Origin: Mytilus edulis
Taxonomy: Eukaryota
Length of the DNA: 64,000 nucleotides
Reading direction: 5' to 3'
Assembly (NCBI RefSeq): GCF_963676685.1
Contig: NC_092351.1
Span: forward strand, 13,268,001-13,332,000
Shown here: piece by piece, positions 19,207 through 57,200 of the stretch
Numbering within the stretch: position 1 is the stretch's first letter
Layout: each line of letters opens with the position of its first letter
Notes under the pieces: generated by a model
The model's input: only the letters and a program-made list of their open reading frames with translations
Told to the model about the DNA's origin: nothing
Databases searched by the model: none
Position numbers and translations under genes: made by a program

Positions 19207-19272
19207 ATTTGCAAATATTAATCCTAAAAATGATTTTCATATTTATCTCACAAAACATTTTGGGAACTCAGT

Positions 19273-27500: not shown

Positions 27501-30500
27501 TGTTTACAGTTTATCTCTATCTATAATAATATTCAAGATAATACCAAAAACAGCAAAATTTCCTTAAAATTACCAATTCAGGGGCAGCAACCCTTCGGGC
27601 CAGGTGAGCTAAAAATGTATTTACATTTCTTTTTGATGTTCATTTTTCTTAAACTTGCATTATATTTTTCAGAACAATTAAACATATTAATAAACAATGT
27701 TAAAAGCTATTCCACAATAGGAGAGAAAACAGCTTAAATTACATAATTAGTAAAATAGAATGTTTGAGGACAAAAATACACCTTCTCATATTTTGCTATT
27801 GTCTGCATGCTGTGGTTCTTATCATTGTGTATGAGTATCACAAGAATTGGATGAGTAAAACTTAAGTTAGAGAGAGCAGAAATAAAAATTGGGATGGATG
27901 GATGGATGGACTGTAAAAGGTAACACACAATGCTTCTTTCACCCTAAAGCAGGGGCATAACAAAAGTATGGTAAGTATATCATGTATATAGATTCAAAGT
28001 GTCATTTTTTTTTTCATTTACACACTAAACTTTTAAACCAATAATATTTTTCTTCAATTACTCCTGCAATAAAATAAATAAATACATAGTTGAAAATTTC
28101 AAACTGAATAAAAAGATAAATTTATATCTAATTTTAACAAGTATTCCTTAGAGAAAAACTAAGAACATTAATTGATACAAGTTTCAATTCTGAAGATCTC
28201 AATTATACCTGGCTTTTTGAGTATTGTTTTCTTTGTGCGAGTTATGTTTGATAACATTTACCACTGTTCCTAGTAACTGGCAGGATTCTGTTGAGGTTTG
28301 CGCCTTTGCCATCAACTTTCTGTGTGAATTAAGAATACTGGATTTATTTCTTTCAAGAAGGTTGACGTATCGTCTTCCAGTATCTGAACCAGGATTACCT
28401 ACAATAATAAACAATAATCTCATTCTTTGAAACTAACATTATAAAATTATGGTGTAACTGCTGTTGAGGACAGAATAGTGTTTTTGAATGAGAATATTAT
28501 CTAGAAAAAATACACTAGAGAAATATCTCTTATCAGATGATTGATTGCTGTTGTTGACTCGCCCTAATTAGCTTTAACATGTAGGTCCAGGTTAAACATA
28601 CCTTGCTGGGTTCAAACTTACAACCTCAATGTTGACAGGATAATTATCACATTAAATCACTAAACTGCTGAAGCTCCCATTTTACAAAATTCAAATTGGA
28701 GCATGCATATGCAGACTATTCTTAATAACTTAAATCACAATCCTCTTTAAAAATAGAAAAAATAAATTATTGGAAGCAGCTTATAAATCATATCATTTGT
28801 ATTATAAAAAGCTCGAAGTTTTTTATGTGCTGTTCATATATAATTATGTATGTCTGTTTATGTTTTACTTGCTTATGGCTTTATTTTTTTATTTATCATA
28901 AATTGTCTTCTATGTTTCATCTTTCTTCATAGTTTGGTACCATCTATGAAGCTTATCAATTTTGAGGCTGAACATGGAATTATGACCAATGCAGTTGTCT
29001 TTATTCAGTGTATATTTTAAAATAGTAAACTTGCTTAAAGAATGATGACTTCTTTTTCTTTCTAACTTAAGGGTGTATCTTCTGTGGTACTGCTTTATAT
29101 CATCTTGAGTGGAAACTTGCAACCAAACCAGTTTTGTCATATCCAAACGATGTTCCTCAAAATAATTTTTAAGCTGAGACATTCCTAGTGACAAAAAATA
29201 AGAAACTTATTTCTGTAAATGTTACAACAATGAATAAATATATTTTTTCACAAATTGAAATAATGCTAAATGTTACTGATTCGACAAATTTATCTTAACA
29301 CTATGCAGAATTTGTAAAAAAAAGAAAAAGATATTCATCAGTTTTATTCACTATTAACTTTTTTTTCTAGATTTCCTTATTCACAATCATGGTATGTTAA
29401 CAGGACCTGTTATAAAACTGCATGATGTGTTAACATTTTTAGAGGCATTGAATTGTATAATGTTGATAGTGAAAACTGCTCTAGAACTGATATAAATGAG
29501 TTTCCTTCAAAAATATAAATACCTGAAAAACATGATAATCATGAGTTGTATGGCTAAGAACCATGATTAATCATATGATAAATAGTTTATACTTTAAGGA
29601 ATGTTTAATTCCTTATTTTTTTTAGATTAATTGCACACCTTACTCAAATAATGTTATAACAAAGACATATTACAAATATGAAAACAATGTAAAAAAGTAA
29701 AAAAAACTCAATGGGAAAAAACTAAGGACAATTGTCATGATTGTGTAGATCACTGTGTATGAATTTACATGGTACATGTAGATATGAACAATAATGAAAC
29801 ATACCCTCAGATAAGAAATATCCCTGAAGAACTCCACTTTCAAAAAATCTACAGTAGTAAACATCATCAAGCTTGAAGAAGGAGCAGTAAAACTCTCCAT
29901 CAGTAAGGGAGGGTGATGACAGATCTAACATGGTTTTCTCTAACTGAAATAAAAACGGTGTTTCTGGTGAAGTGAAGTCAGCAGCGGCCAAAGATTCAGA
30001 ACATTTTCCTTCTAGATACACAGCTCTTGAGGCAATTTCTAGATTCTTCTTTAAGCTGACTTTCCATTCTACAATGAATTTTGATTTATACAGTTTACTT
30101 ATTCATTTTAACAATATATTTTTTACCTAGAAGCAACATGAATTTCATTTAAAAAATGTAAAGATTTTTGCAATAATAAAACCATTTAAAATAAATGAAA
30201 GATGATATGTTTGTTAACCTTATATCATGTAGAACATTGACATGTCAGTTAGATAAGTTTTTGTGCTGATTTTACTCAGAAAATGTATTGTTTATCTTTT
30301 TTGTTTCAAGTTTAATAAATATATAGTAATGCTATCAATATAAAAAAAAACCAATTAAAAATACTGCACATACATGACATATATTTCTACAATTTATGTT
30401 ATTCATGAATTACCTCTGTCTTCCAACTGTTGCAAAACTGAAGATGATGGACATGCTAATTCTGGTCTAGTTGAGTGTACTCCAAAAGTTTCCTATCAAA

Positions 30501-31981
30501 TAAACAAAAAATAAATTAAAAATGAAAATTTTCTTACTACATGTTACTGTGTATAATTTCAGCTTACGCCCCAAAAGGTAATAAGCATTTGTTATATGCC
30601 ACATAATAACTTATCATAGCCAAGCTGCTGACATTTTTCACTATCTACTAAATAAAGAACTAGAATGAAGCCTTAGTAAGGTGTGACTCATAATATTTTT
30701 AGAAAGGCACTTGGGTTTAATTGATTACTGCATAGATGCAAACCCCTTTTTGACACAATCAGTAACAAACTATCAAATTTTCCGTATTTTTGAAAAGTTT
30801 TCAGTAATCATTCATAAACGTGCATTTACCAATAAAAATTACTGATGAGTGGTTGCACAGTGATGTACACTAAAATTTGTCATTTAACATGTTGTCTGTA
30901 GTATGTATTCCATTCATTGATTGTTCAGATGTTCTCGACTCAAACATTTTTGTTTTGTCAAGGAGAAGTAGAGAAAGGGGGAAAGCTACTTAATAAAATG
31001 CAAGTTTGCCTCTTCGGAAGTCAGTTAGTTACCCAACAATAGGTTGATAACTCCCGAGAAACCGGAAGCATTACATTGGCGTTTCCTAAATACTGGACCA
31101 GGACGGAAAAGTAATGATAAAAATCCGCGTTTTACAAAATTGAACGTCGATGATTGGGAATCCGTAACTATACTACTTTGACCGTAATAGCGTAGTTTTT
31201 ATCGCAAAATCGGAAAAACTACGGAAAAATCGTAATGGTTGGCATCTATGTTAATGATTATACATGGACACATGCAAGTAACTGATCTTTAGATAAAATT
31301 AAAATTAATCAAACAGAAGCACAAGTTTTTTTAGATGAAATACAGAAAATGTTCCTCTGCACACGCACCTGTACATCATTTTATTGTTCAACTGATAGGA
31401 ATTCAAGAAAGAACCCATTAGATCTTGATGAAACTTTAAGAAAACTGCAGTATATATATATAAAAAATAATATTGATAAAATATTTTATAAAATTTCAAT
31501 GTCAATGAATGTTATGATTTCTTCAGAAAATTTCAGTAAAAATATGTAGACTTTAAAAAAAAAATGACAATATGTCGATAGTAGTATTTAGTACATATGT
31601 GATGCCCAACATAGATGTGTAAGCATTGTGTATTAGTTTAATAAAATATAAGACAATAACTTCGAGAGAATAACTGCACTTCAGAATAAAAGCCAAAAAT
31701 AGAGACAAAATGTATGTTACAATGTATGTATGTAACTATGTATGTGCCAGTACCAAGGCAGGAGCCTGTAATTCAGTGATTGTCGTTTGTTAATGGGTTA
31801 CATATTTTCTTTTCATTCAACATTTTTTTAAACATAAATTAGACTGTTTGTTTTCTCGTCTAAATTGTTTTACATTTGTCATTTCTGATCCTTTTATAGC
31901 TGAATATACGGTATGGGCTTGCTCATTGTTAAAAGCCATACAAGGACCTATAGTTGTTAATTTCTATGTCTCTTGTGGAAG

Positions 31982-32154
31982 TAGTCCTATAACATATGAC
32001 TTCGCATTCTTATTCAATTTTTAACGTTTTTATACTGATATTTTCATTTTTATTTTTTTTTGAGCTCGGGTGGCATATTGATAGTAAAAAAAAATATCAG
32101 AACAGTAAATAGAAATAGTAAATAATGCCCCCGAGGTCATATGTTATAGGACTA
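31982..32154. mobile_element. Academ-type MITE: TAG...CTA termini, 9-bp TSD
   Basis: TSD ttgtggaag at 31973-31981 and 32155-32163; TIR tagtcctataacatatgac. Confidence 0.85.
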
Positions 32155-34507
32155 TTGTGGAAGGTGTCTCATTTATGGCCATCATAACACACCTTCTTTT
32201 TTATATACACCATAGGGAGAAGTGGAGGGTCGTGTCATGTTTTTTTAAACTCTATTTTCCAAATCAGGAACCTGATGTTAGTTGGTTGGTTGTCGTCTGT
32301 TGATGTGGTTTAGTAGTGATTCTGGTTTTTTATAATTAGGTTTCCAAGTTTGAATGTCTTTATAGCTTGCTGTTCAGTGTTAGCCAGGTCTCTGTGTCGA
32401 AACCTTTACCTTTAATCTGTAATTGTTTACTTTTACAAATTGTGACTTTGATGGAAAGTTGTCTCATTGGCACTCATACCATATCTTCTTACACCTATCT
32501 ATATCTATTTATTTCTTTTAAAAGCATTTGTGTGTGACAAATGCTAAGGAGGTATTTCCCTGCCTTGCCAAGTAAACATTTTCCTCATTTTTTTTTTACA
32601 TCCAATAACAAAGGGAAATAATCCAAATCATCAAAATTACGGGTTAACTCGGCCCAGGACCAACTCGAACCACGACAAGACAAAACAGCACACTCAAAAT
32701 CATGTCACAAAAAATAAAATGAAAATATAAAATAATATGGAAATACCGACTTACCTACCCTAAATTTTTTTTAAAGCATGTAACCTTAACAGACATAATA
32801 TATATATTTTTTGGCCTAATAATAAAAAAATGTTTTTTTATAAATTATTTACAAACTAAAAAAAAACAAACTTTTTGTCACCTGTCATGCTTGCATAAAA
32901 CATATATGATATTAAAGTTGGGTCTAAAAAAACACACATTGGCGGCAATAGCCTTGTTTATACATGTAAATAAATACAACCATTAAACCATTCTAATGTA
33001 TCGAGAATTGGTACTTACAGAACATTAGTTATTTCTAGACTATTCTGCAGAATATTATTCCTGAAGATGTTTGAACCAATAGTTTGTGAAGTTAGCGGTC
33101 AGTGTAACAAGTTGCCAAGTTGTATTTTGCCAATGTATGAAAGAATTTTTTAATCTGGACTAGCTAGAAGGATAAATTCTGGATTTCTTTGAAAATTGAA
33201 AAATCATATTCAGTTTAATATGTTTAAACATTTTCCACAATTGTTTACTGCATGTTGTAGCAGATTATTCATCTTGTACTGTGAAAGCTCATTAATTTTT
33301 AGCTCTTACCGAATCTAGGTTATTCTCTTTTTTCAGTAATCCCCCCCCCCCCCCAAATCCTAATTTGTAATAAATTTCCATTGTTTGTTGTTTTTTTAAT
33401 GTAGTGTTCCCAAGTTCTTGTCAAGTACACAACTCAAGACTAAGATTAAAGTTATCAGGTCATGCCAGTGTATGCTTTCGTTTATGCCCAGAACGACTTT
33501 TTTGTAACTTTAGTTTGTCAGATATGAATGCACGTGCGGAGCGTGGGACCTTATTAAACCTGGGTATATATGAAACCTCCAAAGGTTAATAATTAGTAAT
33601 TACTTTTGTAATAGGTTTGACTAGCTATTGACGAGTATTGTACGCACATCTTCGGTTGGGCCTCGATGTTTTTTTTAAAGGGGGAGGGTCGATGTTATGG
33701 AGTTGAAAACCCGCAAGACACACTGTTAAAGCACTTTTTGCTGCATTTAGTTGGCAAGCTAACTTACTTTCACTAAATTACTCATAATCCTGCTAAAAAT
33801 ATTCTAATAATTAAATAAAATCAACTATAGAATTGTTGTGACCCCTTTGTGAAGCAACAATGGCCGACAAAGATGCTCTGCAGCAGTAGCTATATCACAT
33901 GATTCAAGCAACCAATGGGACGTACAGCACCAGACTTTTTTGTAATATATGATATGATTGGTTCCTACGTTTTGGTAGGTAAATACTATGTAAATATATA
34001 TATCAATTGCAGTCAAAATACATGGGTTAATGTGTTGCAATGTAAACAATGGAGAGCGTGGAGAAAAACATAAAAAGGTGAAATGATACATAGTTTGTAA
34101 AGTACTGAAGAAGGTCAATGTATTTAATATCTCTAATAAACAGCTGCGCCATGTAAAAAGTTTCTGAGATACGGCGCGACATGTGATTTTTTTTTTTACA
34201 AAAAACTCAATAACTCTAAAATAAAATTTTGAATCATCACCAAAAAGTACACAGATCTTTAGATTAATATAACTAAGAAGTGTGTAAAGTTTTAAGCAAT
34301 AGATATTAATGGTTTTTAAGATACGATGCAACATGTGAACCCCCTTTTTTTTTTTACAAAAAACTCAATAACTCCATTATAAAATTTTGAATCATCACCA
34401 AAAAGTATTCAGATCTTTTGATTAATATAACTAAGAAGTGTGTACATTTTTAAGCAATAATCATAAATCGTTTATGAGATATGGCGCGAAATGTGAAAAC
34501 CCATCCC

Positions 34508-37194: not shown

Positions 37195-38689
37195 TATACC
37201 ATAATACGTCCCGTCAAAATTTTGTTGGGTGTATAAAAACCACAGCGAATAAAAGTTACTGTTGTATGAATAGGGTATATACATATTAACCGGCAACAAG
37301 CAGACGGTTCGGTATTCAAACATTCTCAGTATAAAATAATAAGATCAGGACATTTTAAAAATTCTTAAAATAATAACCATGCTAATAAAGTAGATACGAA
37401 GAAGAAAAAATACAAAGGGGGTTAAGTGTATTATTCCCTAAGGTCTATATGTGCAGCAATTGGCTATTACTTTGTGTTCAAAATACTAGCAATATACTGT
37501 ATGTTGAATTTTAAGTGATTGTCAAACTCATGTGAAAAGGGGTTGCCCGTTTGGCTGTGCGGAGTGTTTAGATACACAGTGAACTCTGGTCAGAATGGGA
37601 ACGTTAAATCCGATGCACGCTGTTGGGAGAATGCCGATCTCTGTGCACGTTAATTCTGTGAATGGTCCGTAGACGGCCTGTTTTACAGCTAAATCTGTCT
37701 GTCCTATCAAATATCTTTTTTCGTGGCAGTCTTAACTTCGCGCCCTATTACCCGGTTGACATACCTTACAGAAAGTTCCTTTATTAGAGTGTTGTTAATT
37801 TGCTTTGAATGTACGAACATTCTACAGTCTCCTTTTTTAAATATTTTTTTATTTGTTAATCAATGCTGAATCATTTAATAAAATGATAATTCGTGAAGTC
37901 AATCTATAATAATTTTGATTGTTTTACAACATTATTTTGGACTCAATACATATATTTATTGTATAAGTCGAGAATGCGAGACTTATGCGTGCTTGTTCCA
38001 GCGTCGACGCCAGCAATGTATGACATGTATGAACTTGTGATATATCAGTTTAAGGGAATTACTAGTGGAAGGTCAATGATATTTGGTATACAGTGCACAT
38101 TTAATGTCCATAAATTACACAAAGGCGAGACATATCTCTGTGTCAACAGTTTATATTACTTTTATGAAGAAAAAGTTGTTCAATTTATATTTAATTGAAT
38201 TGTCGTAGTTAAATGTTCCTACCTGCCATGCATTACACGCTTTGTGTGACTTTCCTGCTTAGATATGTATTAAAGGGTGATTAAATTAATGAGACATCAA
38301 CCCAACTGGTGCACATTTGATAAAAAAGACATCTATTCAAATATATTCAAGACTAATATATACCGATGTTTCCGTGAGATTTTGCGCCGTTCGTTTTAGA
38401 TTGTAGTATCGTACTTTTGGGCAAGTTAAACGTTTAAAATCTATAAAAACATATCATCCGGATACATGAAACATATTGTACTTGTTAAAGTTGTAATTTC
38501 GGTGCTTTCATAATTTACATTCTAACATGACGTCCTTCAAACGCTTTGAGTACACACCCGTGGTAAAATATGAATATATTGCCAGTGCTGTTCCGATTGT
38601 ACTCCCACGTCATCAATCTCCGGCGCAGAGATCATATCCGTTCCTTACGTGCTCCGCAATACTACACTTAATATGACCTCTGCCATACG

Positions 38690-38776
38690 ATTGGCTGACT
38701 CCATGAGGAAATTTCCTCATGGCGGACAAGCGGAAGTATATAAGGTTGTGAAAAGGCTATTTGTAAAAAATGGCGG
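38690..38776 (+). promoter_or_regulatory. Compact promoter of the RecQ gene
   Basis: ATTGG (CCAAT box) 38690-38694, perfect 22-bp palindrome 38701-38722, ETS-like CGGAAGT 38731-38737, TATATAA 38737-38743, and YY1-like AAAATGGCGG over the ATG at 38770. Confidence 0.55.
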
Positions 38777-39116
38777 ATTACGAAATCCAGCTTAGACGTC
38801 TTGGACTTGGTCATCCTAACATACTACTCAAACCTAAACAAATTGAAGTGTTGGACGAAATCAGAAAAGGAACACTTGAAACAGTTGCGATTTTGCCAAC
38901 TGGTTATGGAAAGAGCCTCATATACCAACTGGCTCCGCTAATCTTGGACGGCACTGTGATTGTTTTTTCACCTCTCAGTGTCATCCAAGAAGAGCAAGTA
39001 AAACAGTTGAAGAACTCAGAAGCACTGAAATGTTGTATATTAAATACCAGGGTAAAAATCTACTCTTATTCTTAAGGTTCATCATAAGGAATTTAAAAAT
39101 ATGGCCGTGTTTACCC

Positions 39117-39817
39117 TAGCAGGGGCGTGTCCAGGATATTTTAAAGGGGGGGGGGGGCGTAGAATAAACCTTTTTTGGGCTTAAAAACATAAAATAATAG
39201 AGAATTGCACTATTGTAACGGTTCCTGACTTGGAGCATGTATATTTTATAGTTAAAGTGTCAGGGTGTGACATTTTTTATGCCAAGTTCTCTCCATTAAT
39301 TGTCTATGGTATATTAAAATGATTGGATGGATCTTAACAGCAGTAGACCAATAACGAGAAATTCCAAACTCAAAGGAATAAGGAGTAACCAAGATTTTAT
39401 GAACGAGAGGCGTGATTACGGTTGATGGTCCATGGGGAAGATCAGAAGCTCCTGAATTTCAACAATTTAGCATCAAATTATGAAGTAATCCCTCTATTTT
39501 TGATTAAGTTCGGGTTTCGTTGAACGACATACATGATACAAGACAAATAAACACTGAAGAATAAAGTTCTTTCGTTCTGAGTATTGCTTTAATGTGGAAA
39601 TATACATATTTCTAGTATAACTAGCAGATTATAACGATATTTTTTTTTTTTTAAAGGGGGGGGCGTACGCCCATTACGCCCTTACCTGGACCCGCCCCTG
39701 CCTAGTCCAAATAATTATGACGCCTTGAAAGGCTATTATAATTTTTTTCTCGTCGATGTAAGGCGTCAAAGAAAAAAATTATAATAGCCTTTCAAGACGT
39801 CATAATTATTTGGACTA
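39117..39817. mobile_element. Academ-type hairpin MITE (TAG...CTA, 9-bp TSD) in RecQ intron 1, with a nested MITE
   Basis: TSD tgtttaccc at 39108-39116 and 39818-39826; long TIR tagtccaaataattatgacg.. Confidence 0.85.
39120..39700. mobile_element. Nested MITE with CAGGGGCG termini and 5-bp TSD
   Basis: caggggcgtgtccagg ... cctggacccgcccctg; cctag at 39115-39119 and 39701-39705. Confidence 0.85.
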
Positions 39818-40645
39818 TGTTTACCCCTAAAAATTTACTATATGAGTAAGAGAAACTGGTACATCTAGGAAAGTTTTAAGGCATGACAGATATATATATA
39901 ATAGTTATATAAAGTAAACGTTTCAGAAAATTATAAACTTTACTAGATTTTGGTTTCCAGTTTTTTTCGTTCAGGCAGAAGGTGCCAAAATAAACTAAGT
40001 CGGAAAGAGGTTTGAGAATATCCCCTTATATAATACATGTTGTGAGTAATATTGATTTAAATGGACAATTGACATCTGCAGACAACAGGTGATTTAAACT
40101 GTGTAAATGATTTGACCTATGAAACGAAACTCATGTGTTTGTTTATTTTGCTATCTTCTGCAGACTGGAAAAAACTTGGACATCAAAATCCAGGTAAGGT
40201 TTTAATTTTCTGGATTGAGGATTTCATATTTTTAAGCCCAGGATTTGGGATAGAGGATTTTATAATTTATAGCTCGGTATTTTAGGATCAGGACCCCTCC
40301 GATTCTCCCTCTTTACACATGCATGTCAAAATCAGCAATTTTTTTTAAGGTCTAAAAGATCTTTTAAGTGAAATATTTCAGAATATGAGTGCGAAGAGAT
40401 GATCACTAACTAATCCAATTTGTGATTTACCATTTGTTATTATAATTAGTTAAAAAAAAATGTATATGTAACAGATGACTGTAGTGGTAGCCTTAAGCCA
40501 CCTGATGAGTACCCTTGGCCGGGACGAAACAGTTTTACTAACATACCAAATTAAAGTTAACTGATATTTGAAGACTTTGAGATATTCATGTCAATCTGGT
40601 ACCAGTTACATGCTTATGCATGGCTCACCTGTTAATTTTTTTTTT

Positions 40646-40769
40646 TACTCAAATACTGTACTTAATATTTCAAGTTGTCAACTGCAGGTTATACATATAC
40701 ATATACATGTATATATATATGTATAACCTGCAGTTGACAACTTGAAATATTAAGTACAGTATTTGAGTA
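40646..40769. repeat. Perfect foldback inverted repeat, ~54-bp arms
   Basis: tactcaaatactgtacttaatatttcaagttgtcaactgcaggttatacatata and its exact reverse complement around a short (ta/ca) loop. Confidence 0.9.
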
Positions 40770-43113
40770 TATATATATATATAAGGTTGTTCTAAATCTT
40801 GTAGTTACATGTACATGTATCATATGTTCAAAAGTATTTGGTTTCGTCAAGAAGTAGTTTCTGATTCATTGAATGGTGCATGAATTTGATAAAATCTAGA
40901 TTCATAAATCATTATTCTTGATTGTTGGCTACACATGTATTTAATTTCTTCTGTTTCAGTTTCTAATAATTCTTGGTAGGTAGTTTAACTGTGCTCCTTT
41001 ATTCCACAGGGAAGACTGTTGACTGCAGGGAATGAGGAAAATATCCAAGATCTTAAGTGTGATATAGATACTTCAGATATATCCAATTGTAACTTAATAT
41101 TTGCTCATCCAGAAGCCTTCTTCTGTACTTCAGAAGGAAATGATCTTTTGGATTCCTCTAGGTATTAAACTATTTATATGCATGTATTAATTATATATAG
41201 AAAAAATAATCAAGAAATTAAAAAAAAAAGATTTTTGACTTATGCATCACTTCTTTCCCATGTTAAATTGTTCTTTAAAGCAATAATGCAATAAAAATGG
41301 AATGTTGATTTTGCAGTCTGGTTAAAATTAAGCAGTCCCTTAGAGTTTAGTTTTTCACATTTTTTTTCTGAAAACCACTTACATTGTTAAATTTTGCTAA
41401 CAAATAATGATAATGTTACTGAGAATTCTGATCTTAATATGAATTTAGAACAACGTTATGTGTGCATTTAAAATACATCCAAGTGGCCAAAACAGTCAAT
41501 AGTAAAATTCCATGTTTTTTTTACTTTATATTTCTTGTAGTTTCAAATCTTCAGTGAAGGCAATTTTTATTGACGAATGTCATAAAGTTGCAGATTGGTA
41601 CGTTTCAGCTCTAGTTGTATTTTAATTTCAGATTCAGTTTGACAACTTTTTTCTGTTGGACAATAGCAAAATGTATTGAATATATGAATAACTACTGGTA
41701 ACATTCCATACTTTTTAGGTGACCTTAATGGACATCTATTACACTTTATAAAACAATTTAAACGTAATTCTTTAAGCTTTTGTCCTGGTTGTGTGTTACC
41801 CCGTATATTGGTCAATAATTAACATAGTTTATATATTTTATCAAGCATTGGCCATTTCTTTGAAAGTAAAGTTTTTTTTCCAATTTTAAAAATCAATATT
41901 ACTTATATAACCTCAATAATATTTTGTTGTTTTGTTTTTTTATATTACCATTGATTTAAAGTTCACATTTTGACATGAATTTCTATCAGATTTTACTGAT
42001 ACTGTTTGAAATGTTTTAAACAGATAATGTAAGTATAAAAGAGAAAGCAAGGTATGTATTTCCATTTCTAATGTTAAGACTTACCAGTAATGTATATGTT
42101 TTTTGTATATTTATTACTTCTAGCAAAACTCCTTACAGTTGGCCTAATGGAATTTATCTGCAACATGTAGCAAGACATTTTTTGAACTTAACAATAAGTA
42201 AAATTGATCTTAGGTGACCAATTTTTTATTAATTTATTTTCAGTGCATATCTGCATTTTACATGTTTTAGCTTCTGGTTTAATTTCCTGTTTTCATCCAC
42301 TGTCAACTTCTATAATGCAGCTAGTATAAGCTTTTAATGTGTTTTTTTTAAAAGCTTTTTGTTAACATTTAGTAATTAATGCTTTTATCTTAATTTTTTA
42401 TTTACATTTTATCTCACCCTTACTAACAACATACATTATAAAGAAGTCTGTATCTATAGGGTAATACACTTTTGCTGTATGTTGGTTCAATTCCAACTGC
42501 GGACAAACAATGTATATTATTTCAGCTATTAACATTCCACTGTGAATGCATTTTTTTCCAATTATCTGTGACCTGTATTGTTTTTGAAATATATTATTCA
42601 TTCTTGGATTATTAGATTCAGTGGTTTTCTTTCAAATTTATTTCATGTAGATAACTAAAATTATAACAAATACAGAACACAAATTTTAAGACCATATTTA
42701 ATAAAATCAGAGTTTTTATTGGAAAAAATGATTTCATATTGCTTATATCCCTTTTATTTGGTGGTGGTGTATTTAACTTTATTTATTAAATGGTTATCAA
42801 AATGCATGATCATTACTTCTTTTTTTATGAATAGGGGGAAATCCTTCAGGAAAGCTTTTGAACACCTGAAAGAGCTTCCAGGATTTTTTCCAGGAGTACC
42901 AAGATTGGGACTTCATTTGCTAAAAGGTAAAGATTATGCTTAGTGTTGAAGGTATTTTGTATCTTAGTCAAATTATCTCTACCAATATAGTAGTCTCATT
43001 GAAAATCATGCAAAATCTCCATATTTCATATCAGAAATCATTTTGAGAAAATCTGACCTAAAAATGCTTGCAGAAAATTATGATGATCATCATGATGATG
43101 ATGTTAATAATAC

Positions 43114-46100
43114 CGTGTTTTCATTTCTTCAATAATGCTCATGAAGATGTCTTTTTCGCTAAGATCTGTCTGACTACAAGTCCTTAACATGCTTGGGTAG
43201 TCATATGCAGCATTACTCTTTAAATTGAGTAGTTTTAATATTTGTTTTGTTCTATCCTGACATAAAATATTGACGTCTTCATCATCTTCTTCATCCTCTT
43301 CTGTGTGCAAGTTACAGGAATATTCATGGTCATTTGAATCACTTGCATTGTGCCCTTTGTGGTTGATATATGAATGGTCACTGTAAAAATAAACATTTAA
43401 TGGTAGTAAAAGATATTTCATAGACATTGACTTAAGTCTTCAAGATTTGTATGAGAGTTGAGGATATATATGTTGAAAAATAGAAGTACTATTGCATATC
43501 AAATTTTCAAGATACTAAGCATTTACAAGATATGAAAGCATAAACTTTATTCAAACTCATAAATGATCTAGTTTAAGGTTATGTACAGTCTTTGACGTCA
43601 CGTTTAGCAATGACATTTATAGGCCAAAAATATTCATAAAGTTCCGCTGACTTTTTTTTTGTATGTCAAATTTATACATTTTTTCAACTTGTAACATATC
43701 TTATTTTTTAAATGTATTAGAACCAGAATATCAGTACTGTAGTTGAAGAGTTGACACTGTCAATTTTGATTTGACGGCAGCAAATATTGGTCGCCAATAA
43801 AACTGCATTTGTGACCGTCAAATCAACAATTAACGGTGACAACTCTTTAATAACAGTATCGTTATTCCTTATTTACAAATGCTTATCTGCTTTTTTCAAT
43901 TGATTGTACTTGCAAAAATTGTCTTTTGATTAAACAATAGAAATTACATGCCCACTCCTATTGGTGGTCAGACTGGACAAGCTGGAATTTTGCCCACCCA
44001 GTGCCAATTCCCACTGTGGAAGAGTGGACAAAGCAAAATCTACCCTGAGCTGTAGTGTGACCTAAACATATAGATGATATATACTTTGTAAAAGATCTTT
44101 TTACTCCTGATGATAGTATGCAATCCTCCTCTTGAATAACTGTGTCATTTATACTGAAAAAAGTTATATAAAACTGTTGATATGAATGTAACCACATGTG
44201 CATACTCATAATTCATTGTAATTTCACATTATGTAAAAAAGTACAAAATGATAGGTGATATTTTTTTTCTTCAGATTCCCATAAATGATAAATATTCCAT
44301 TTTTCCTACAATTATTCTTTGTGCCTGGTACTTTTTTGCAAGTTGGTTGCTTTTCAGACTACATTTTAAACAATCAACTATAATTATTATATTCATGTTC
44401 ATATTCATATATACATTGGTGTTTCAATAACTTTGTTATTTATGTATGTCACAGGATATGGATCTATTGCTTCTAAATGATTTTTTTAATTGGGGGAAGC
44501 TATCTCATTGACATGTAGACCATATTTTTTTGTCATGTGCATAATGTACTGTGTACTGTAACACCTATGTCCCTGGTTACATTTTCAACCCAACCACATT
44601 CTGTTTGAATTTTCCTGTCCCAAGCCAAGATCCTGTAATTTAAATGAGGCTGTTTGTTGCTGTGCTCCATAATTGTTTTTCATCTATTTTTTGCACTTTG
44701 ATTAGGCCATAAGTTTTGTCAATTGAATTGTTTACATTTGTGATTACTTTGTCTTTTTTTAGCTGACTAAGCCATAACAGTTTTTATCGTTGTTAAAGAC
44801 TTGACAGTAACCTATAGCTGTGATTTCTTTTGTGTCAATCTGTCTCTTGTGGAAAGTTGTCTCATACATGTCATATTGGCAATAATACCACATCTTCTTT
44901 TAATATAATATGAAATGTGTTGACATCACTTATTCTAAAGTTCCTACAGATAATTACTTACTCTGATTTGTCTATACTGCCAGCATCCCCTGCAGGACCA
45001 ACTGTATGTGATAGACCAGGTTCTAGACTTCAAACAAATATATTTGTATTACTTTTTGAACAAATTCTCTGTTTATTTGTTTTGAGCAGTCCATAACCCT
45101 TCCCATACATGGTATTTTGTATATATATTGTTGTGAGCGGCACAGTACATTCTATTGAAAACTACTCTATCACATCATAGTACAAAATAAATATGGAATT
45201 TATCAAAATTTTCAAGCACTTGACTAGATACATATATTTGTACAGCCAAATTAATCAAATGTACATTGTATTATGCAAATGCCATTATTAAAAATTATTC
45301 CAAGTTTAAACTATAGCCTGTTATAAGGCCAAAGAAAAATATATGTGTGGTTCCAGTAACCCTACCGTCCCTACTTTTTTGGCTTGAAAATAGCCTACCC
45401 TAAAGATTTTATTGTCATTTTTCATTAAGCACTGTTAAAGTCAGAATGTTGCTCACATACATGCCATAGACTCAATGTAAAAAAAACACCATAAAATAAA
45501 AAAAAAATCCCTAACTACCTACCCTAACTTTTTTTCAGATGTAACTGGAACCACACATACTTTTTCATTTGGCCTAAGTAGATTTTTGTAAGTAGAGCCA
45601 TCTTAACCATAGCATATGTAATTATATATACATTATACAGCTTTCATTATATATGCCTTAGAATTAAACATGACAAAAAATGCAAAGGTGCATTCATTAT
45701 TCCAAAAGGTTTAATTAAATAAATATCCTATACTGTTTTAACTTTTAAAATTTTGAAAAATTTAAATAAAAAATCTCTTATACCTGTACTATGTTTATAA
45801 AAATGAATAATTAGCATTTAATGAATCACACAGTATACATATATAATAAAGGTAAGTTTCTGCCTTTGTTAGTCTTGTATTATTTTAATTTTAGTTTCTT
45901 GTGTACAATTTGGAAATTAGTATGGCGTTCATTATCACTGAACTAGTATATATTTGTTTAGGGGCCAGCTGAAGGACGCCTCCGGGTGCGGGAATTTCTC
46001 GCTACATTGAAGACCTGTTGGTGACTTTCTGCTGTTGTTTTTTATTTGGTCGGGTTGTTGTCTCTTTGACACATTCCCCATTTCCATTCTCAATTTTAAG

Positions 46101-47866
46101 TTACTTACTCAATGGAACCAAAGTGACCATTCCTTAAACAATCAATTATCTGTGGATCAGGTGAAATTCTAAAATCAGAATTAGAACTATGCAATTTATA
46201 TGACATGAACATGATGAAAGCACATAAGTATATACCAATATTTACCAGTTTACAATTGAATAATTATATAGTCCAACTGTATATATTGTTACATTGAGTG
46301 CTACCCAACATAATATTATCTTTAATATTCTACTGAGATCAATAAAGGTCTTATTTTATGTCTTATATTAAATAGCAGCTAAATAATCAAAAAGATTTCA
46401 ATCATGTCACTTAGTGTATCATTGGCAATGGAGACCAATTATCTAATATCAAACAAAGGTCAAAAGTACAAAAAGTGCAGTAAATGTTTGTTAATATTCA
46501 TAATATTTATTTTAGTATTTTCAAGTCTTTTTTTTGTGTAGTGGTAGCTGAATTGTTGACATGAACCCTTCCCCACATTTCATGCGTATTCATCAACTAT
46601 CTACACATACCCTGTGTCAGTAACCAATTGATTGACATGTTGTTCCTGAAACACAGCATGATCACTAAATGTATCAATTCTCTCAGTTCTACAAGAAAAT
46701 CAACAGATAAAGTACATGTAATTCATATGTCAATCAAGAGACGCCCCGAGGAGCAGTACAATTACAGTTTAAATTAAAGTGTACAAATAATTGTGTTGAT
46801 TTTTTTCATTGAAATTACAATACATGACAATAAAATTAAAACAATATTATATAAGAGAAGGGAGACAACAAATACAGTAAAAATTCTCAAAGATAATGAG
46901 TGAGTGAACACAATCAGTACCGTTTTATAATGAGAAGAAGAGCTGGACTACTCATGTGTTTATGCTTAATTTAACTCTTCTAGATTTTATTAAACTATCT
47001 ATTAATTTAATCATTATGTTATTAACAAATGGATCTTCATTATAAATATTTTTTGTATCTTTCAATTTTAACTGGAAGGAGAAATTAACATCAATAAGTT
47101 ACACAATCTTTTCATAGAGAAGTGAAGAAACAATGAAATCTTTAAAAAAAAATGTATTCTTGTTTAAATAGCTAGGAATGCCTAAATCGCTAACCTATAT
47201 AATATACTTAAACCTCCACTCAATTTTGGTCAGGAAAATAAGAAGTTCTGTTTGTCAAACATGCAAAATTGCAATGTTACAAAGAATGTGATTATAAGAA
47301 TATCAGTTACACCAAGTTGAAGAATAATTAATAATTATCTCAAGCTATGTTGTGTTCAATATTAAATAGAGATATCATAGCTACTGATAAATAACAGTCT
47401 TTAGTGGCTAGTTCATTGGTCAAACATGGTCCACTGCATGCACTATATATATATTTCTTACACCTTTTATTTGGCTTTTTTGATAAAAATTAAAAACTAA
47501 TTTTGGGGGTTATTCATATGGACTTCTTTTAACTTCAGAGGTCCAGATCATTATTATTTAATAAGACATGGTCATGGATTACAAATTCATGAAAGACATT
47601 TATGTATAATATATCTAGTGTACATGTATACGGAAATGTTCATTATGTAGACAATTTAAGCACTTGAGTTACCTGTATATGTTCTCACTCCACTCTTTCA
47701 ATTTCTTTAACGTACAATAGCAGGAGTTACACAATGTTTGTTTTTTGGTAGTTGGAATGTAAACTGATACAAAATTCTTTGTAAATTTGTCGAAAAAAGA
47801 AAAAAGGTCAGATTTCAAGGAATGAAATCTCCACGAATTTGTGGTATAACAAGCATTGCAAGACAT
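43114..47866 (-). pseudogene. N-terminal part of a spliced C2C2 zinc-finger, transposase-like gene of the TIR element; catalytic core deleted
   Basis: Exon 47673-47866 MSCNAC...LCNSCY (ZAD/THAP-like C2C2). Small exons at ~46611-46645, 46109-46168, 44962-45027, ~44043-44153 and 43114-43380 (DHSY, DHEY, acidic tract, FMSIIEEMKTR). No DDE residues visible. Confidence 0.5.
45327..45574. mobile_element. PIF/Harbinger-type MITE
   Basis: TAA|GGCCAAA ... TTTGGCC|TAA, with an extended imperfect TIR (atgtgtggttccag). Confidence 0.75.
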
Positions 47867-48202
47867 ATCAAATTATTTAAATTGAAGAAGAAATCCATAA
47901 AAAAAGTGAAATATGTATAAAAAACATCGCTACAGAAATAAAAATAATCCCTTTGCAGACTACTTTGTTTACATAATTTGACAGGAAATACAATCTATAA
48001 CAGAAGTGCGACAATCAGCTTTTATTTGATAAATATAAATTTTTTAAATAAATTTCATTAAAACTTTTGTTATTCTTTTAAAATTGAAGATTGATTGATA
48101 AATTTTGATAAAAAAAGTCATCATAGGCATTTAATTTTTGTTTAGAGATTGAGAAGAAAAAGTACGCAAAAAAAGGTATGGCAGAGGTCATATTGAGTGT
48201 AG

Positions 48203-51200
48203 GAGGGTGTTCATGTTCCAAAACGTTGGAACCAATCAGATTATTATTTACTTTATAAGCGTTGGTTTGATTCGTTGGGGGTGTGTCTTATAAATGTATG
48301 ACGAGTAGCCTCTGTATGAAGCATTGATCTCCTATGTGAAGGCATAGAAAGTGTACTATGGCGACCCGATGGCGGTAACAGAGAACAACAAAAACTATTT
48401 TGTAGCTTAATGCATGCAATACAACCTATCTGTCTGGTATTGGTAATACTTCTTTTTACCCATTCATGTAAAACATACTCTTTTTTGTCAAATAACACTT
48501 GAAATTAAATGAAGTTGCGGTGCATCGAAGGATCCAGCCTTCGGGGGACCGACTCCTGTCGTCCTGGTCGAAAATCGTCAAATTATTTTGATTGCTACCG
48601 AAAGAATATTCTTGTCATCTGTTTCACTAATAATATCTTAGAAATTAGGTGACTTACATGATGTCATTATACTCCTTCAAATGTCTTTAAATTTAAATGT
48701 CTTCTTATTTAAATTATTCAAAGGCCTTCAAATGCGGAACTAAATTCAATGAAATATTATGGGGGAGGGGTATCCAACCAGGTATCGGGATCGTTTGCCC
48801 TAGGTTCATTGCACGGAGTTTCTTCTCCCTGATACAGAGATCTCCATGGATGAAAATTGAACGATGGAGGAACTTTCACAATCATAAAATGTATCTACAC
48901 CGTACAGTGTAACGCGATCGAAAGTATTTCATCCCTCCATATAAGGATAGGTGAACATGCTAATTCATTGCTTATTTAAATTATATTTATTTGAATTTTC
49001 ATTATAAATACTATATATAGAAGTACATGTATATATTTTTTCAATAATTGCCGTTTGTAACCCTTCAAAGGCCAAGCCCTCATGCCCCCTCCATTTACCT
49101 TAGTCGAGCATGACCAATAGCTATCACGAAGGTCCCCATGTAGTTTTCTTGCTACTTTCGGTAATTGTTAAAAATCATGTGGAGCTTATTTTTTACGGAC
49201 ACTCAAATTCAGAAGTCATGAACCCATTACCGGTATGGCTGGTTTGCAGCAACGACAAAACGAGTAGTACGGGTAAAAGGGTCCGGTTATGTAAAAGGTT
49301 AAAAAGATTTGTAAAGCAAACGTTGTCAAATGAAAAGGTTTTTAATTACTTTATCTAGCAAATCCATGCTATGCAACATGCATCTTTCGAGTTTAAATAG
49401 AAACCGGAAATGCGGATATTTCAATTTGATTGTAAACTACAAAATGAATTTGGAACTACGATACAATATTTCTTTGCAGGAAATTAAAGGGGCACTAGCT
49501 ACGAGATATATAAAAAATCTAAAGTTTGATTTTTTTGGTTCAATCAATAATGAAAGTGAAATAGTGAAATAACAATTTGCTTTTTGCAGCCAAAAAGGTT
49601 AAATTTTGTCAAATTACGCTAAGAAACATTGATAATTAGTAATTCACTTGCAAGTGAATGAGTCGACCTCTTTTTAATCCGTATTCATGTGAACTTCAAT
49701 TTAACCCCATGCTAGAGATTGACAACTAATGCATTGTACGTGTACTGGTTATTTAAAGAAAAAGAATGTCAACAATAAAAGTGAAACTACGGTAAATCAT
49801 TTGATTATTAATTCGATGCACATAAAATCATTCATATACGGTTAAAAGCAATGAGAACCATCTATTTTTAATCTATAAAATAAAATCAAACACACCTATA
49901 AAAATCTAATTGCACGTGTTGTTTTAATCTTTTCATATCTTTATTTATGTTTACATCGCTTATATGGTCATATTAGGTCAAATCGATAGTTAATTAGATG
50001 GCGTCTGGACTAAAATACACACGAAACGAATCTAAATATTATCTACCCCATGCTCTGTTAACTGTTTATTTTAGACTTTTGATAGTTTGGATAAATGTTT
50101 TACATAGTTATAAATCAAATATGAGAATTTGAGTCAAATCGGTGACCATGAATTTGACAGCTAATGCCCCTTTAAAAGTTTTTACTTTTTAACTTTTAAA
50201 GTAATTCTATATTATCGTTACAATACCGCAGTACTCGAGTTATTTGCAATGAAATAATAATTACTGTTTTACGTCTTATTTTGTACTTCTTAAAAAGGGG
50301 GATGCTGATAGCGTAACTAAGTCAAAATAAAAGCATGTGATAGTCCGTTCGCCCTATTTTCATGTATGATATGTATATGATACATTAATGAACGAGATAT
50401 ATATATTTTATATCCATTAAAATTAAATACAGAATACTTGCTAAATTTATATAAATTAAATAAAATTCTTGGCTGCATTGTTACACTTTAATTTATAATT
50501 AAATTCTGAGAAACTTATTTCCTAGTAAGGTAATTGCATACAGATACAAACTTAGTCATCAATGAATTGTCATGTCATGGTTTCTTTTATACACATTAAA
50601 CATGCCACCAAGGACCTATACATACAATTTATGTTATTAACACATCATGGACCATAATAAAACAGAAGACCTATGTAGCTATTATCAACACATCATGGGC
50701 TCTTAAACTACAATGAAACAGAAGACCATGGATCAATTAGACACACCATAATCTCTTTTATACATATAACCCATGAGACCATGGACTTATAATTAACACA
50801 TCTATTAACACATGACACCATAGACATAATTCATGTTATTAACACATCATGGACTCTTATACCACAATAAAGATAGACCCTGGACCAATTAGACTCAAAA
50901 ACATGCCATGGTCTCATATTACGCATATTACACATGAGACCAAGGACCTATTCATGTACATGCTATATATCTGTCATAAGCATATCATTTAAACCACAAA
51001 TAAACATAAGATCCTGGACCACACAAAACTGTAAATGGCATGCCATGGTCTCATTAATGCATATTACACGTGAGACCTTGGACCTAAACATATCTCGGAC
51101 TTTTAAACCACAAAGAAACATGAGACTAAGGACCAAATAGACAGTAAATAACATGCTATGGTCTCATTAATACATATTACACATGAGACCATGGACCTAT

Positions 51201-54200
51201 AAATCTGTAAATAACACTTCATAGACTCTTATACCACAAAGAAACAAGACCATGGACCATTAGTCTGTTTTCCAATTCCTGTAATTAGAGACTACTTTTT
51301 TGGTTGCCTCCCTTAGGAGTATATTAATGTTTAATGGCAATGGAGATCTAGTAGAAAAAGCAAACATATCTGTGCATTTTGTGGGTAACCATTAAGTTTT
51401 TCGATTCATTTAAAAACATTTAACTCTGTGTTAAGCTAAATACTTTTTATAGATTTTAAATTTGTTAAAACGTTAATATATCACTTTCAACTTAAGCTGA
51501 GTGGTCAAATACCAGATTACGATTGACCAAGGGAAGTTATTTGTTTAAAAAGTGTGTAGTTACAGAATCAAATTGGTAATTGGTAAAGGAATTGTTTTAC
51601 ATTAAAAAAAATAATGATGTAAAACATGTAGTAGACTGTAAAAAATAAAAAATTATATCAATTATTTGAATGATAGCTAACAATAGTTCTTACAAAGGAT
51701 ACTATAATTATGATACAGTACACTTCAATTTATGATATGTAATAAGCAAGTCTTTACCTGTTTGATATATATATGTATTCATATATATTTAACATGCTAT
51801 ATATGTTATAATATCATTTTACTTTTATTCCAGTCTGAAAATAATTATACAAGCTGCATCATTTTTCTAATTCTGTAAAGATTTCAGAGATGTCAATTTC
51901 CCAAGTGTTGAAAAGAAAACTGTAATGTTTTGTGTATTTAGTTCTTTAAGATTCTATTTTGACTTAAATTTAGTAACTTTACATAGTCAGTCAAGCCAAT
52001 TAAAATGTTTTAGTCCTATATGTGTGTAAACTTTAATTTGTGCATATTTATTTACATATTATTTTTCATAAAATGGAAATAATAGATAAACAGTATCAAT
52101 ATAGAAGATCACATGAGTAGTAGATAAATCATGGTGATGGTTATAGTATGAGAGAGAGAAAAATCTGTTGAGTTAGAGATTATATATTTAAAAAATTAAA
52201 GTTGTCTCTAGTTATCCTACATTATGCTACTTAGTACATGTAGTATATTCATAGTGTATTTTATATGGAATATTGATCACTGTTTAAATTTATTTTAAAT
52301 GCTTTCAAAATTCAAAATAACTTATTACAGGTATTTTACAGTTATTCAAATATTATTTTTATGCCCCATTTATGGGCATTATGTTTTCTGGTCTGTGCAT
52401 CCGTCTGTTCGTTTGTCCATTCGTCTATCTGTCCCACTTCAGGTTAAAGTTTTTGGTAGAGGTAGTTTTTAATGAAGCTGAAGTCCAATCAACTTGAAAC
52501 TTAGTATGCATGTTCCATTTGATATGATCTTTCTAATTTTAATGCCAAGTAAGAGATTATCCCCCATTTTCACGCTCCGCTGAACATAGTAAATGATAGT
52601 GCCCAGGGGCATCCGTGTACTGGGGACACATTCTTGTTTTTTATAAATGTAAAAAGTGTTTTTTTCTTATATAATTTTCCTTAGTATCGCTCTTGATTAC
52701 TTGAATTTAGTATGTTATACTTTTAGGTGGAGAATTTCAAAGATGAATATCCAGAATATGCTATTATTTGTATGGCTGTTGTTAATAATGCCATTGTGCA
52801 TGTTGTATCAACTGGTATGTATCTGTAATCATACATTTGAGACATTTTTTCTCTGATTAACTTTTATCATGCCATGTCTTAAACAAATATTACCACATGT
52901 ATTATTACATTTAATGGACTTATTAACCATAGTAAAAGTAACCAACCCTGAAAAAATATTGATAGATTATTGAAGGGTCTCCAATTAAGAGTTTCTCTGC
53001 AAAAATCTCATGAAAGACAAACAAACATCCGCTTGTTAGAAAGATCTATTTTAGAGTTAAAATATGATAAATGAAATAGACATATATATGGTCAATTTTT
53101 AAATGTAATAATTTCAGTAGACCTGTGCTATTTATAAATTCAACTTTCTTTTTTTTAAATTTTACATTTTAATACATTTGTACTTTTAAAAGAGTTTCTT
53201 TGCTTTTCGAGTATTAACTTATTAAACTGAGATAGATTTAAACAGCAAATGTTGATATATTGAAAAGATATATATGTTTTTTGTATTATATTCAGGTTCA
53301 GTACAGATGAAGTTTATGTTGGTTCAAAATTAGCATGTAACAAAGACGTACAAAGATATACTTCTTGGCATGCAGTTTAATGGTAAACCTACAGAATATA
53401 TAAAAAAGAAGATGTGGTATGATTGCCAATTAGACAACTATCCACAAAAGACCAAAATGACACAGACATTAACAATTATAGGTCACTGTACGGCCTTCAA
53501 CAATGAGCAAAGCCCATACCCGCATAGTCAGCTATAAAAGGCCCCGATATGACAATGTAAAACAATTCAAACGAGAAAACCAACTAATATGTTTATATTA
53601 CATATCCTTCTTCATGCATATTTTTTTCCTTTTGTTCTGCTTCACATTTTTATTCTTCCACATAAGTTATGTTTCACTGTTCAACTACTGGACCCATTTT
53701 AAGCAATTAGCTTGATTTTACTGCATAATGTACACATGGGTACATGTTGCAATATCTCAAATATAGAAAAATAGATGTATTAATATTTATGGTTAGTGAA
53801 ATGAGTCTTTTTAGTTGAAGGGAAAACCAAGTGGCATATTGTAATTAGAGCTGTTAAACCATAGTTTTATGATACTGATACAGTGCTTGTTTTTCAGAGG
53901 CAGACAAAACTCCAGATCAGGCTGCAGACAATAATATTGTATCAATACCATACTCTTCTGTGCTGGAAACTAACGTCTATGATTTGCATGTTGGCATCAT
54001 GAGAACTCCGATATCCAAATCAGCTAAACCAATCACTTCTCTATCTAGTATGACACAATTTATTTTTATGTATTTTCTTTTTTTTAATATTAATAATGTA
54101 TGGTTTTCATTGTTATATCCTTGTAACTTGAAAACATTTTTAAATAGCACATTTTTAATGGTTTACCATTATAACTTACATGACTTACTGATAGGATGTT

Positions 54201-57200
54201 ATAACTTTCTATTTAACCTCGATAAAGGGGGATATGATGCAGCTTATTGGCTTGCCTGTTTTCATGACATTTTTTGCACTTGGTTGCAGTTTATATACAT
54301 TCTAGGATTGAAAGCCTTTGGCTTAGAAAACATCAGCATAATGACCCATATCTTTTCCCTTTGGTATTTAATCCTTTGTAATGTTTTGCCTATATTTCTG
54401 ATATTTACATATTTCTTTTTAAGATACAGGCTCTTTGGGTTTAATTGTTCTTTTAGAATTGGTCTATTCCATGGGCATAATCTTTTGATAGACAGTGTTA
54501 CAAATAATACTCATTATTTTACTTATCTTTTACACCATCAACTTTTGTAGTCACATCAATCAGTCGTAATGCAAATTGCTATTGAATATCTTTTAGTATA
54601 TAAATGGTACTGAAGAAGAATGTGTAGAAACTGTCAACCATGATCCAATAGAGCCTTAGAAAATATGAGAAGGGGACAAGGAAATGCAGGAGACGGATGA
54701 AGAACAAGGGGGCATAATTTTTCAAGACAGGACAGGAGAAAGGGCAAGAACCAGAGGGGTAAACACATGTTCGATATGAAGATAATTCAATACAGGTTGT
54801 TTTTTTATGTCTGTCTAGGTTAAGGAACTTTTATTTTTTCATAAATAATTAAAGTTATTCATTGTATGTATTTCAAAGAGACCAAATGATATAGTAGTTA
54901 ACAACAGTTCACTTTTCTATCTCCAACAATGAGCAAAACCCATTACACTTATCCAGCCATGACAGTCCCTGAAATTACAAATGATAAACATAAAATTCCT
55001 GTACAAAACAATATACAAATATAATATCAGAAGACAACCAATGAATTACACTGGATTTGTCCTTTTTTTCTGTTGTACTAATAGGAGAAATAGAGGTAAT
55101 ATCGAAATAAAAAAAGAACTTAATTACATAAATCGCTTAAATTTTTAAATTATTTGGTTTGTGTACAGCTTATTTGAAAACAATAATAAAAAATATAGGT
55201 CACCGATGAGTTAAAAAAGAAATTTCAGTTTTATTGCCAAAAAATGCATTTTTGCATCAAAGGGAGATTATTTGGAGCTTTTTCAATGAAATAGATATTT
55301 TAAAAGTCATCTGGGGCCAAACCTAATCAATTTTTTTTTATTAAATTTTGTACCATATCATAAAGTTATAACTAATAGTGTAATAAATAAAATTTGTAAT
55401 GAGAAAGACAAATGTTTATTTTTTCTCTTAACCAAATACAGTCGTAACATTTCTTAGCGAAACGTGATCGGTTTTATAGAATATTTCAGATGAGATCATA
55501 GTTTAATAATTCAAACCCAATTTCATAGAAATTTCGTGATGACGACCCTTTGATTATCTTTAAAGTTAACCTGGTCATACTTTAATTTAGTTTCTTTTTT
55601 GGGGGGTTTACAGTTAGATGGACGGATAGATCATGATCTTGAAGGGAATTTGGTAATACCCTAAGATGATGTTGTGAAGCTGTTACCTCATCATATAGCC
55701 GAATGTTTATTCTGAAGGTATATATTGTATCACAATAAAGGAGTATTTCTAAACAGATTGGTTTCCTAATGTCATCTTAAATGTAAGTAGTGGGTACCAA
55801 ACGACAATTTAAAATTTTGATCTGAATTGTTGTTACGCTATATGACACACAACGTGTTAAAACATACTGATTTGCTCACATACAATTTTGAATATGGTTG
55901 ACCAAAGTTCATCAAATGACAATAATAAGACATTATAATGAATATCCTTTTCACGTATAAATTTTTGTACCCGCGAGCCTCCTTAAGTGTTAAATTTTTA
56001 TCCTTTTAGAATAAGTTTATTTAATAATTGATAACTTTACTCAGAGCAAACTTATTGTTTAAAGCTTGGTTAACAACATGATACAGAAAATCTAATGAAC
56101 TGTCAAATTATTTTTAAAGAAGTCTTTAACTGTTACAGCAACAGGAGATATCTGTACAGAAAAAAGAAGCTGTAAATTGGCCATTTAAAACATAAATGTT
56201 GGGTACATGCAAAAAAAATACCATTAACACAAAACAAATGATTGATTGATTGAAAATTTGTTGCTAAACATCCAGTGGTGAATATTTCATGCATGTTCAG
56301 GATGACATAATAAATTACAAATATATTAAAGGAAATATGTCTGAAATGTTTTTATGTCCCACCTACGATAGTAGAGGGGCATTATGTTTTCTGGTCTGTG
56401 CGTCCTTCCATCCGTCTGTTCGTTTGTTCGTCTGTCCATCCATCCCTTCATCTAGTAGGTATATAATTTGAGTTGATAACATGCATGTAACTGCAGATTT
56501 TAAAATAATTTTTCATAGCCTACATTAAATCATGCATTAAGATAGAACTACATCCTTGTTTATTTTGCTTTGTTTATAGTTAATATTCTTTGGAAATCGG
56601 GTATTATTAGAGATGTCTTTTTTTTTTTTTAGGTATAAAGACTGTATACCACTTTCCATAGGGGAATGAACAGCTTACCAGTTCACAGCAAATGAAAGTT
56701 GCATTTATAATGCAGTGTCCATTATCCTCTATAGAAATGAAGATACGGCTGTGGTACTGAAGCTGGCTGAAGTGTTGAAAATGGTGGATAATATGGTACC
56801 ATTTCCAAAATATGTAAGAATACAATATATGTTTTTTGTATTTTCCTTTATTTTATACCCTTCTATTACAGATAGAAAATAGAATTGTTTGTTGCTCCTT
56901 CATAAATCTTATGACTGGAAACATTTGTTTGCTGAACAGTTCTCTTAAATTGTTAAATCATATAAAGCAAGTATAAAATTCAACATTAAGACCTGTTTAT
57001 TTAAAAATATTTATAATTGCAATTTACAATCCATTCATATGATCACAATCTGGTGCTTCAATCAATTTCACTATAATGTAGTATGATAAAAGAGTAGCAC
57101 ATAAGTATACAAATGTAAACCAAAAGGATATGCATAAAAAAATTATGTAAATCACAGATTACCATTAAGGGGTTATCTATGCTTGGCAATATTAATTTTT

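Follow-up and report, generated by a model that had tools for sequence, protein, structure and literature searches.

Organisation of the locus

The window is a 64,000 bp stretch of the Mytilus edulis assembly G000 (C8:13268001-13332000); coordinates above 64000 extend its numbering into the adjoining C8 sequence. Between inverted repeats it contains the stubs of two genes that face each other, a RecQ-like helicase and a DUF6589 protein, together with inserted elements. The features are summarized in Table 1.

Table 1. Features of the helicase-bearing element, its target and the nested elements; positions are those of the window unless a contig is named
Feature	Position	Strand	Remarks
High-copy repeat, target of the AcademH-type insertion	38357..38604		left limit approximate; resumes past extended 82788
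Left TSD copy, 9 bp, CCACGTCAT	38605..38613	+	matches right copy; single in 9/9 empty paralogous sites
True left TIR, 75 bp	38614..38688	+	starts CAATCTCC; 27-bp repeat 38662-38688 is its inner third
Helicase exon 1	38770..39051	+	ATG; Walker A region
Nested non-autonomous element, helicase intron 1	39117..39817		TAG..CTA termini; 9-bp duplication 39108-39116 / 39818-39826; high read depth
Helicase exon 2	41010..41161	+	
Helicase exon 3	41541..41597	+	DECH, motif II
Helicase exon 4, retained start	42835..42913	+	cut just before motif III
Deletion junction	42912..42913		2-bp overlap; helicase side / transposase intron 5; loose contig ends after 42913 in 3/3 DNA runs, before 42912 in run X14
DUF6589 (presumably Academ-type) transposase 5' stub	43114..47866	-	exons 47866-47673, 46186-46109, 45027-44962, 44153-44085, 43380-43114
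Right TIR, inner part	48176..48202	-	ends in the left copy (4 bp) of the duplication flanking the insert
Nested KDZ-transposase element in right TIR, 34,522 bp	48203..64000, on to C8:13350724 (extended 82724)		duplication GTAG, 4 bp
KDZ ORF	extended 70383-72062	-	560 codons
Right TIR, outer part, and true right terminus	C8:13350725-13350779 (extended 82725-82779)		outside window
Right TSD copy	C8:13350780-13350788 (extended 82780-82788)		outside window
Second KDZ copy, 28,485 bp	5506..33990		duplication TAA, 3 bp; without about 6 kb including most of the transposase ORF
Further KDZ copies	C8:15521045-15553943; C12:75589889-75619593; C14:46849199-46868613; C4:79862837-79869987		

The helicase stub is encoded by four stop-free exons with GT-AG introns and corresponds to the annotated M. 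edulis protein P0001, the last exon of which runs over 42835-42943. The helicase homology itself ends at 42913, directly before the SAT motif III; past this position the frame adds nine foreign codons and reaches a stop at 42943. An earlier reading made from the sequence alone (the sequence-only reading) had described stop-free RecQ exons broken just before motif III, and this description was correct. The stub is identical to the full-length M. galloprovincialis protein P0002 at 167/171 residues and to an M. coruscus protein at 173/187, and about 246 helicase residues have been lost. PF00270 was found in the stub, while the full-length relatives carry PF00270 and PF00271. RNA run X24, of which about 6% was sampled, gave 0 reads on 40860-43580. 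The nested element in intron 1 holds a second small inverted-repeat element at its very end, with an apparent 5-bp duplication.

The opposite gene is stop-free over its five exons (224 codons) and carries an N-terminal CxxC..CxxC motif. It is identical at 137 of 142 aligned residues to P0298, the accession of which is adjacent to that of the full-length helicase P0002 and which comes from a contig of equal length. Pfam searches with 22 single exons or frames left this gene unnamed, the sole match past the cut-off being a reverse-transcriptase fragment in a copy on contig C7; the gene was identified as PF20231 (DUF6589) via this decayed C7 copy, whose relatives are DUF6589 proteins. The conserved acidic residues of the D/D/E core (D40 in 29/37, D198 in 36/37 and E426 in 33/37) all lie beyond the stub, at 254-640 of P0298 and past the 146 residues retained, which confirms the earlier statement that the opposite gene lacks a catalytic core; about 608 transposase residues have been lost. 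Both genes had been said to break off near 42.9-43.1 kb. This is true of the helicase at 42913; the last retained transposase exon reaches a regular GT donor at 43114, and it is the following intron that is broken, 200 bp on (42912).

In animals, AcademH elements carry the helicase and the transposase as two facing genes. The same convergent layout was observed here and elsewhere in the genome: of 54 helicase loci, taken as C-terminal-exon matches picked from 100 scored helicase matches, 38 have DUF6589 within 20 kb, and the two are facing in 35 of these 38 (about 0.2 expected by chance). On the architecture and the target duplication, DUF6589 is presumably the Academ transposase, and the locus would be another animal case for DUF6589 as the AcademH transposase. 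Helicase and DUF6589 matches are numerous and clustered on contig C11, at about 22-37 Mb.

Termini and target site

The 27-bp inverted repeat described earlier (38662-38688 / 48176-48202, differing at 1 of 27 positions) was recovered, and its pattern, with at most one mismatch, is present at 27 places in the M. edulis genome against 0 for the reversed control. In other copies the conserved sequence extends 48-51 bp outward of this repeat, up to CAATCTCC, and hence the 27-bp repeat is not the terminus. The true termini, CAATCTCC..GGAGATTG, are of the CA..TG type and lie at 38614 and extended 82779. The TIRs are imperfect, 75 bp on the left and 78 bp on the right, with 67/78 columns identical; the right repeat breaks off at 48202, picks up again at 82725 and ends at 82779. 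From end to end the element thus measures 44,166 bp, and 9,640 bp once the nested insert is subtracted.

The CTACAC/TACTAC termini of the sequence-only reading were a misreading, and the ends are not intact as it had stated, since the 27-bp blocks lie inside the longer TIRs and the right TIR is interrupted at 48202/48203 by the 34.5-kb insertion. The uncatalogued family that it had suggested from unusual termini loses its basis with them; the TAG..CTA and CAA..TTG elements at this locus both have 9-bp duplications. The single mismatch in 27 positions, taken earlier as a sign of youth, is a fixed left/right difference of the family and therefore gives no date for this copy.

The nine bases flanking both termini are identical and form an exact TSD of 9 bp, a length that had been left to be determined. 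The element is inserted in a high-copy repeat, in which the 9-mer is present once in 9/9 paralogous copies representing the empty site; the right-flank continuation agrees at 50-51 of 51 bases in eight of these nine paralogues, the ninth having a 1-base indel. The 9-bp TSD is exact in 7 of the 9 two-ended copies examined, with one mismatch in another and no duplication in the last, and four further loci have a single outer end only. These two-ended copies and the 27 places matching the repeat pattern bear out the expectation that other TIR-bounded copies exist.

The right TIR is interrupted at most about 10 bases from the same point at C7:88278904-88279030 (L007), where the interruption is a small element with CAAACTCC ends, and at C13:54611292 (L014). 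With three examined copies interrupted there, the point is a possible insertion hotspot.

Related copies in the genome

No intact copy of the subfamily was found in G000 at the 27 places with the TIR pattern, most of which were fetched. The closest copy, on contig C7, shows 75-90% identity and has suffered frameshifts and partial deletion; its stretch matching the deleted part is about 11 kb long, including a nested reverse-transcriptase fragment. Twelve further loci hold ends or fragments only. At C7:88261209-88262911 (L005), tandem arrays of 54-bp and 38-bp units have formed by amplification of parts of helicase exon 2. Miniature derivatives of the TIR family, 153-872 bp long, were observed at C14:49659111-49659281, C9:49627600-49627765, C6:42357469-42357621 and C5:37822668-37823539; three of the four have a 9-bp duplication, in one case with a mismatch.

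Two-ended elements of related families with helicase and DUF6589 genes are located at C3:12658010-12672414 (14.4 kb) and C6:71318865-71340110 (21.2 kb). Both have 9-bp duplications and long stop-free exons and, judged from sequence, they are candidate autonomous copies. Two related, more distant families have CA/CG..TG ends and 9-bp duplications. An automatic scan for TIR and TSD pairs also returned a hit on C14, which was rejected as weak, and one on C5, which is an unrelated element.

Central deletion and age of the copy

The one central deletion proposed by the sequence-only reading was confirmed, and the breakpoints, in helicase exon 4 and transposase intron 5, were mapped to an overlap of 2 bp. 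Each of the three DNA runs, which come from three studies, yielded a contig that tracks the helicase exon as far as 42913 and then goes on for 14 bases encoding S-A-T-V-T, that is motif III. From the transposase side, a contig of 651 bases in run X14 joins the element at 42912. Contigs running past 42913 and before 42912 show that undeleted, near-identical elements exist in other mussels. The junctions at 42913 and 48202 rest on the assembly, as they are unbridged in independent data among the contigs listed. The earlier view that the element is young was retained on the exact TSD, the near-unmutated host repeat and the identity of about 99% to copies in other mussels (for example 6 differences in 738 bases and 3 in 570), and the TIR difference was given up as a clock.

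The parent element would have moved by cut-and-paste: its DDE transposase would bind the 75/78-bp TIRs and cut with a stagger of 9 bp, and the helicase may have served as an accessory factor of transposition. The deletion is probably a single event, due to end-joining or to an aborted gap repair and dating from the arrival at the present site or later. The alternative, a deleted form that originated at another locus and was then mobilised in trans to the present site by an intact partner, is rather unlikely but has several points in its favour. Both outer termini and the TSD are intact, undeleted partners are present in other mussels, and a sister subfamily has, at C10, C12 and C13, copies with one and the same deletion structure, collinear and 87-98% identical, which means that trans mobilisation does occur in the family. 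Against it, the junction stretch matched only itself in G000 (best 40 of 868 candidates, most of them nested repeats), and among the pieces listed for three other mussels no contig bridges the junction and those present continue undeleted. The trans mobilisation of the deleted form put forward earlier was accordingly not upheld, and a deletion formed at or after arrival is tentatively preferred.

The copy has neither a transposase core nor a complete helicase, and autonomous movement is now unlikely because the middle is deleted and the right end is split by a second element. It is probably immobile at present unless moved as a 44-kb composite.

The nested KDZ element

The KDZ domain (PF18758) was detected in the frame of the insert in the right TIR with an E value of 2.6e-6, above the cut-off. 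The neighbours of the protein in the Atlas (0.96-0.97) are clusters from animals, with KDZ in 10-47% of their members. Six two-ended copies of this young family were found on three or more contigs (three on C8 and one each on C4, C12 and C14), ranging from 7 to 34.5 kb, with asymmetric GAG..ATG termini and an imperfect terminal inverted repeat starting 15 bases in. Their target duplications are 4, 3, 4, 3 and 3 bp, with none in the remaining copy; the 4-bp duplication at the nested copy is firm because the pre-insertion TIR sequence is known from other copies. The copy at C12 likewise has the 560-codon frame intact; at the second C8 locus the frame is interrupted, in 5506-33990 most of it is deleted, and the C14 and C4 stretches lack it.

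The insert (48203-82724) and the copy at 5506-33990 are 99.9% identical, with 0 mismatches in the first 17,196 bp and one mismatch and one gap in the last 11,147. An assembly duplication, with the right end of the outer element truly intact, was considered, as such a long stretch free of mismatches is unusual and polishing can homogenise copies. This explanation is quite improbable: the insert is bounded exactly by the KDZ family termini and duplicates four bases of known TIR sequence, it differs from its twin by the 6-kb deletion and in its flanks, and four more two-ended copies, 96-99.6% identical, are present at other loci. A true insertion into the right TIR, later than that of the outer element into its repeat, is retained. 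The two copies in the window resemble each other more than they do the remaining ones (96-99.6%), which fits a local hop, and the element may have arrived by such a hop to or from the copy at 5506-33990.

A repeat spaced by 42.7 kb had been tried as a transposon-made tandem duplication and was rejected, the second copy ending at extended 82724, where the TIR resumes. Pfam left further long frames of the family unmatched (L002:358-1743); another frame, at window 59524-59835, is weakly PHD-like. A 52-bp tandem array at window 20800-22850, inside the KDZ element, marks the position of the 6-kb deletion. Window 34600-36700, outside the element, holds a 500-bp tandem array, and a run of 190 N occupies 37005-37194.

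It is tentatively suggested that the nested element belongs to an undescribed, currently active, giant (up to 34.5 kb) animal KDZ lineage with 3-4-bp TSDs that hops locally, and that the locus is a 44-kb composite movable as a unit by AcademH partners segregating in mussel populations. The composite could move as one unit because the AcademH outer termini and the TSD are still intact.

Significance

The family could be used to test the part played by the helicase in transposition because it is young and has near-identical undeleted members; to our knowledge, this role has so far not been tested. The AcademH-type element itself matters little, being a deleted copy from a lineage already known and common among bivalves. 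Of greater interest may be the nested KDZ giant, as a possibly active animal family whose target duplication falls outside the lengths published so far.

Comparison with known systems

The locus is, with high confidence, a non-autonomous, centrally deleted DNA transposon with helicase and DUF6589 genes. It most likely belongs to the AcademH lineage, has a TSD of 9 bp and carries a 34.5-kb KDZ-transposase element that splits its right TIR. The AcademH lineage is said to have been defined by Kojima 2020 (Mob DNA 11:15). In the available text of the sources, AcademH is cited as a lineage of the Academ superfamily (PMC10045372, PMC10799480), with a TSD of 9-10 bp for AcademH and 3-4 bp for AcademX (PMC10045372), and Academ is described as having amplified in bivalves (PMC10294476). 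The Mytilus family may already be contained in that study's curated bivalve library, which has 100 Academ consensus sequences. No description of AcademH termini or of Mytilus families was found in the accessible literature searched.

Assignment to a helicase-bearing Kolobok lineage or to an uncatalogued superfamily, the first of which had been raised before, is highly improbable. As far as the available text of PMC9587614 goes, KolobokH and Kolobok-1_CCri are DNA transposons that carry a RecQ helicase, in Kolobok-1_CCri with an opposite-strand layout, and KolobokH is reported only from fungi; the placement of the present element was made by features and domains. However, Kolobok requires a 4-bp TTAA duplication and RR..YY termini (PMC9587614, available text), both of which are absent from the Mytilus element with its variable 9-bp TSD and CA..TG termini.

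In comparison with solved structures, the best matches of the helicase are of the RecQ family, and its scores are about equidistant (WRN 122 bits, E. coli RecQ 118, RECQ5 107, RECQ1 and BLM 100). Pfam gave no RQC or HRDC domain in the helicase, the only RQC matches being found elsewhere. A quick tree of 43 proteins, which included no verified animal orthologue, placed the stub within a 21-member clade of proteins without RQC and separated it from the other 22, mostly bacterial RecQs. The possibility of a RecQ gene of the host (RECQL/BLM/WRN/RECQ5), or of a domesticated gene, with incidental repeats can practically be dismissed, for although the locus carries the annotation 'putative ATP-dependent DNA helicase Q1' and both stubs are stop-free with canonical splice sites, the helicase, rather than being single-copy with one closest WRN/BLM/RECQL paralogue, is RQC-less and about equally far from all of these, has 100 scored matches across the M. 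edulis genome, mostly DUF6589-paired, and is enclosed by TIRs and a TSD within a repeat. The annotation of XP_071123777.1 as 'helicase Q1' is thus corrected to a transposon stub.

The AcademH-like assignment of the sequence-only reading agrees with the 9-bp TSD and the DUF6589 partner gene. On the features compared, the element most likely works like AcademH and departs from it in none of them, sharing the RecQ-like helicase, a presumed DDE-type transposase, the TIRs, the 9-bp TSD and an animal host; it differs in that the Mytilus copy has lost its middle, is non-autonomous and is interrupted by a giant element nested in it. AcademX belongs to the same superfamily but, in the available text of PMC10045372, has a nuclease instead of the helicase besides its shorter TSD.

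For the nested insert, the nearest systems are Zisupton and Dileera, with a TSD of 8 bp, and Kyakuja, with 7 bp (PMC12730594, available text); a KDZ family with 3-4-bp TSDs was not found in the accessible parts of the literature outside Repbase and subscription papers. The insert has in common with these systems the PF18758 KDZ domain, an imperfect terminal inverted repeat and a multi-copy state, and differs from them in its 3-4-bp TSD (in 5 of 6 copies, not 8 or 7 bp), its size of up to 34.5 kb and its asymmetric termini.
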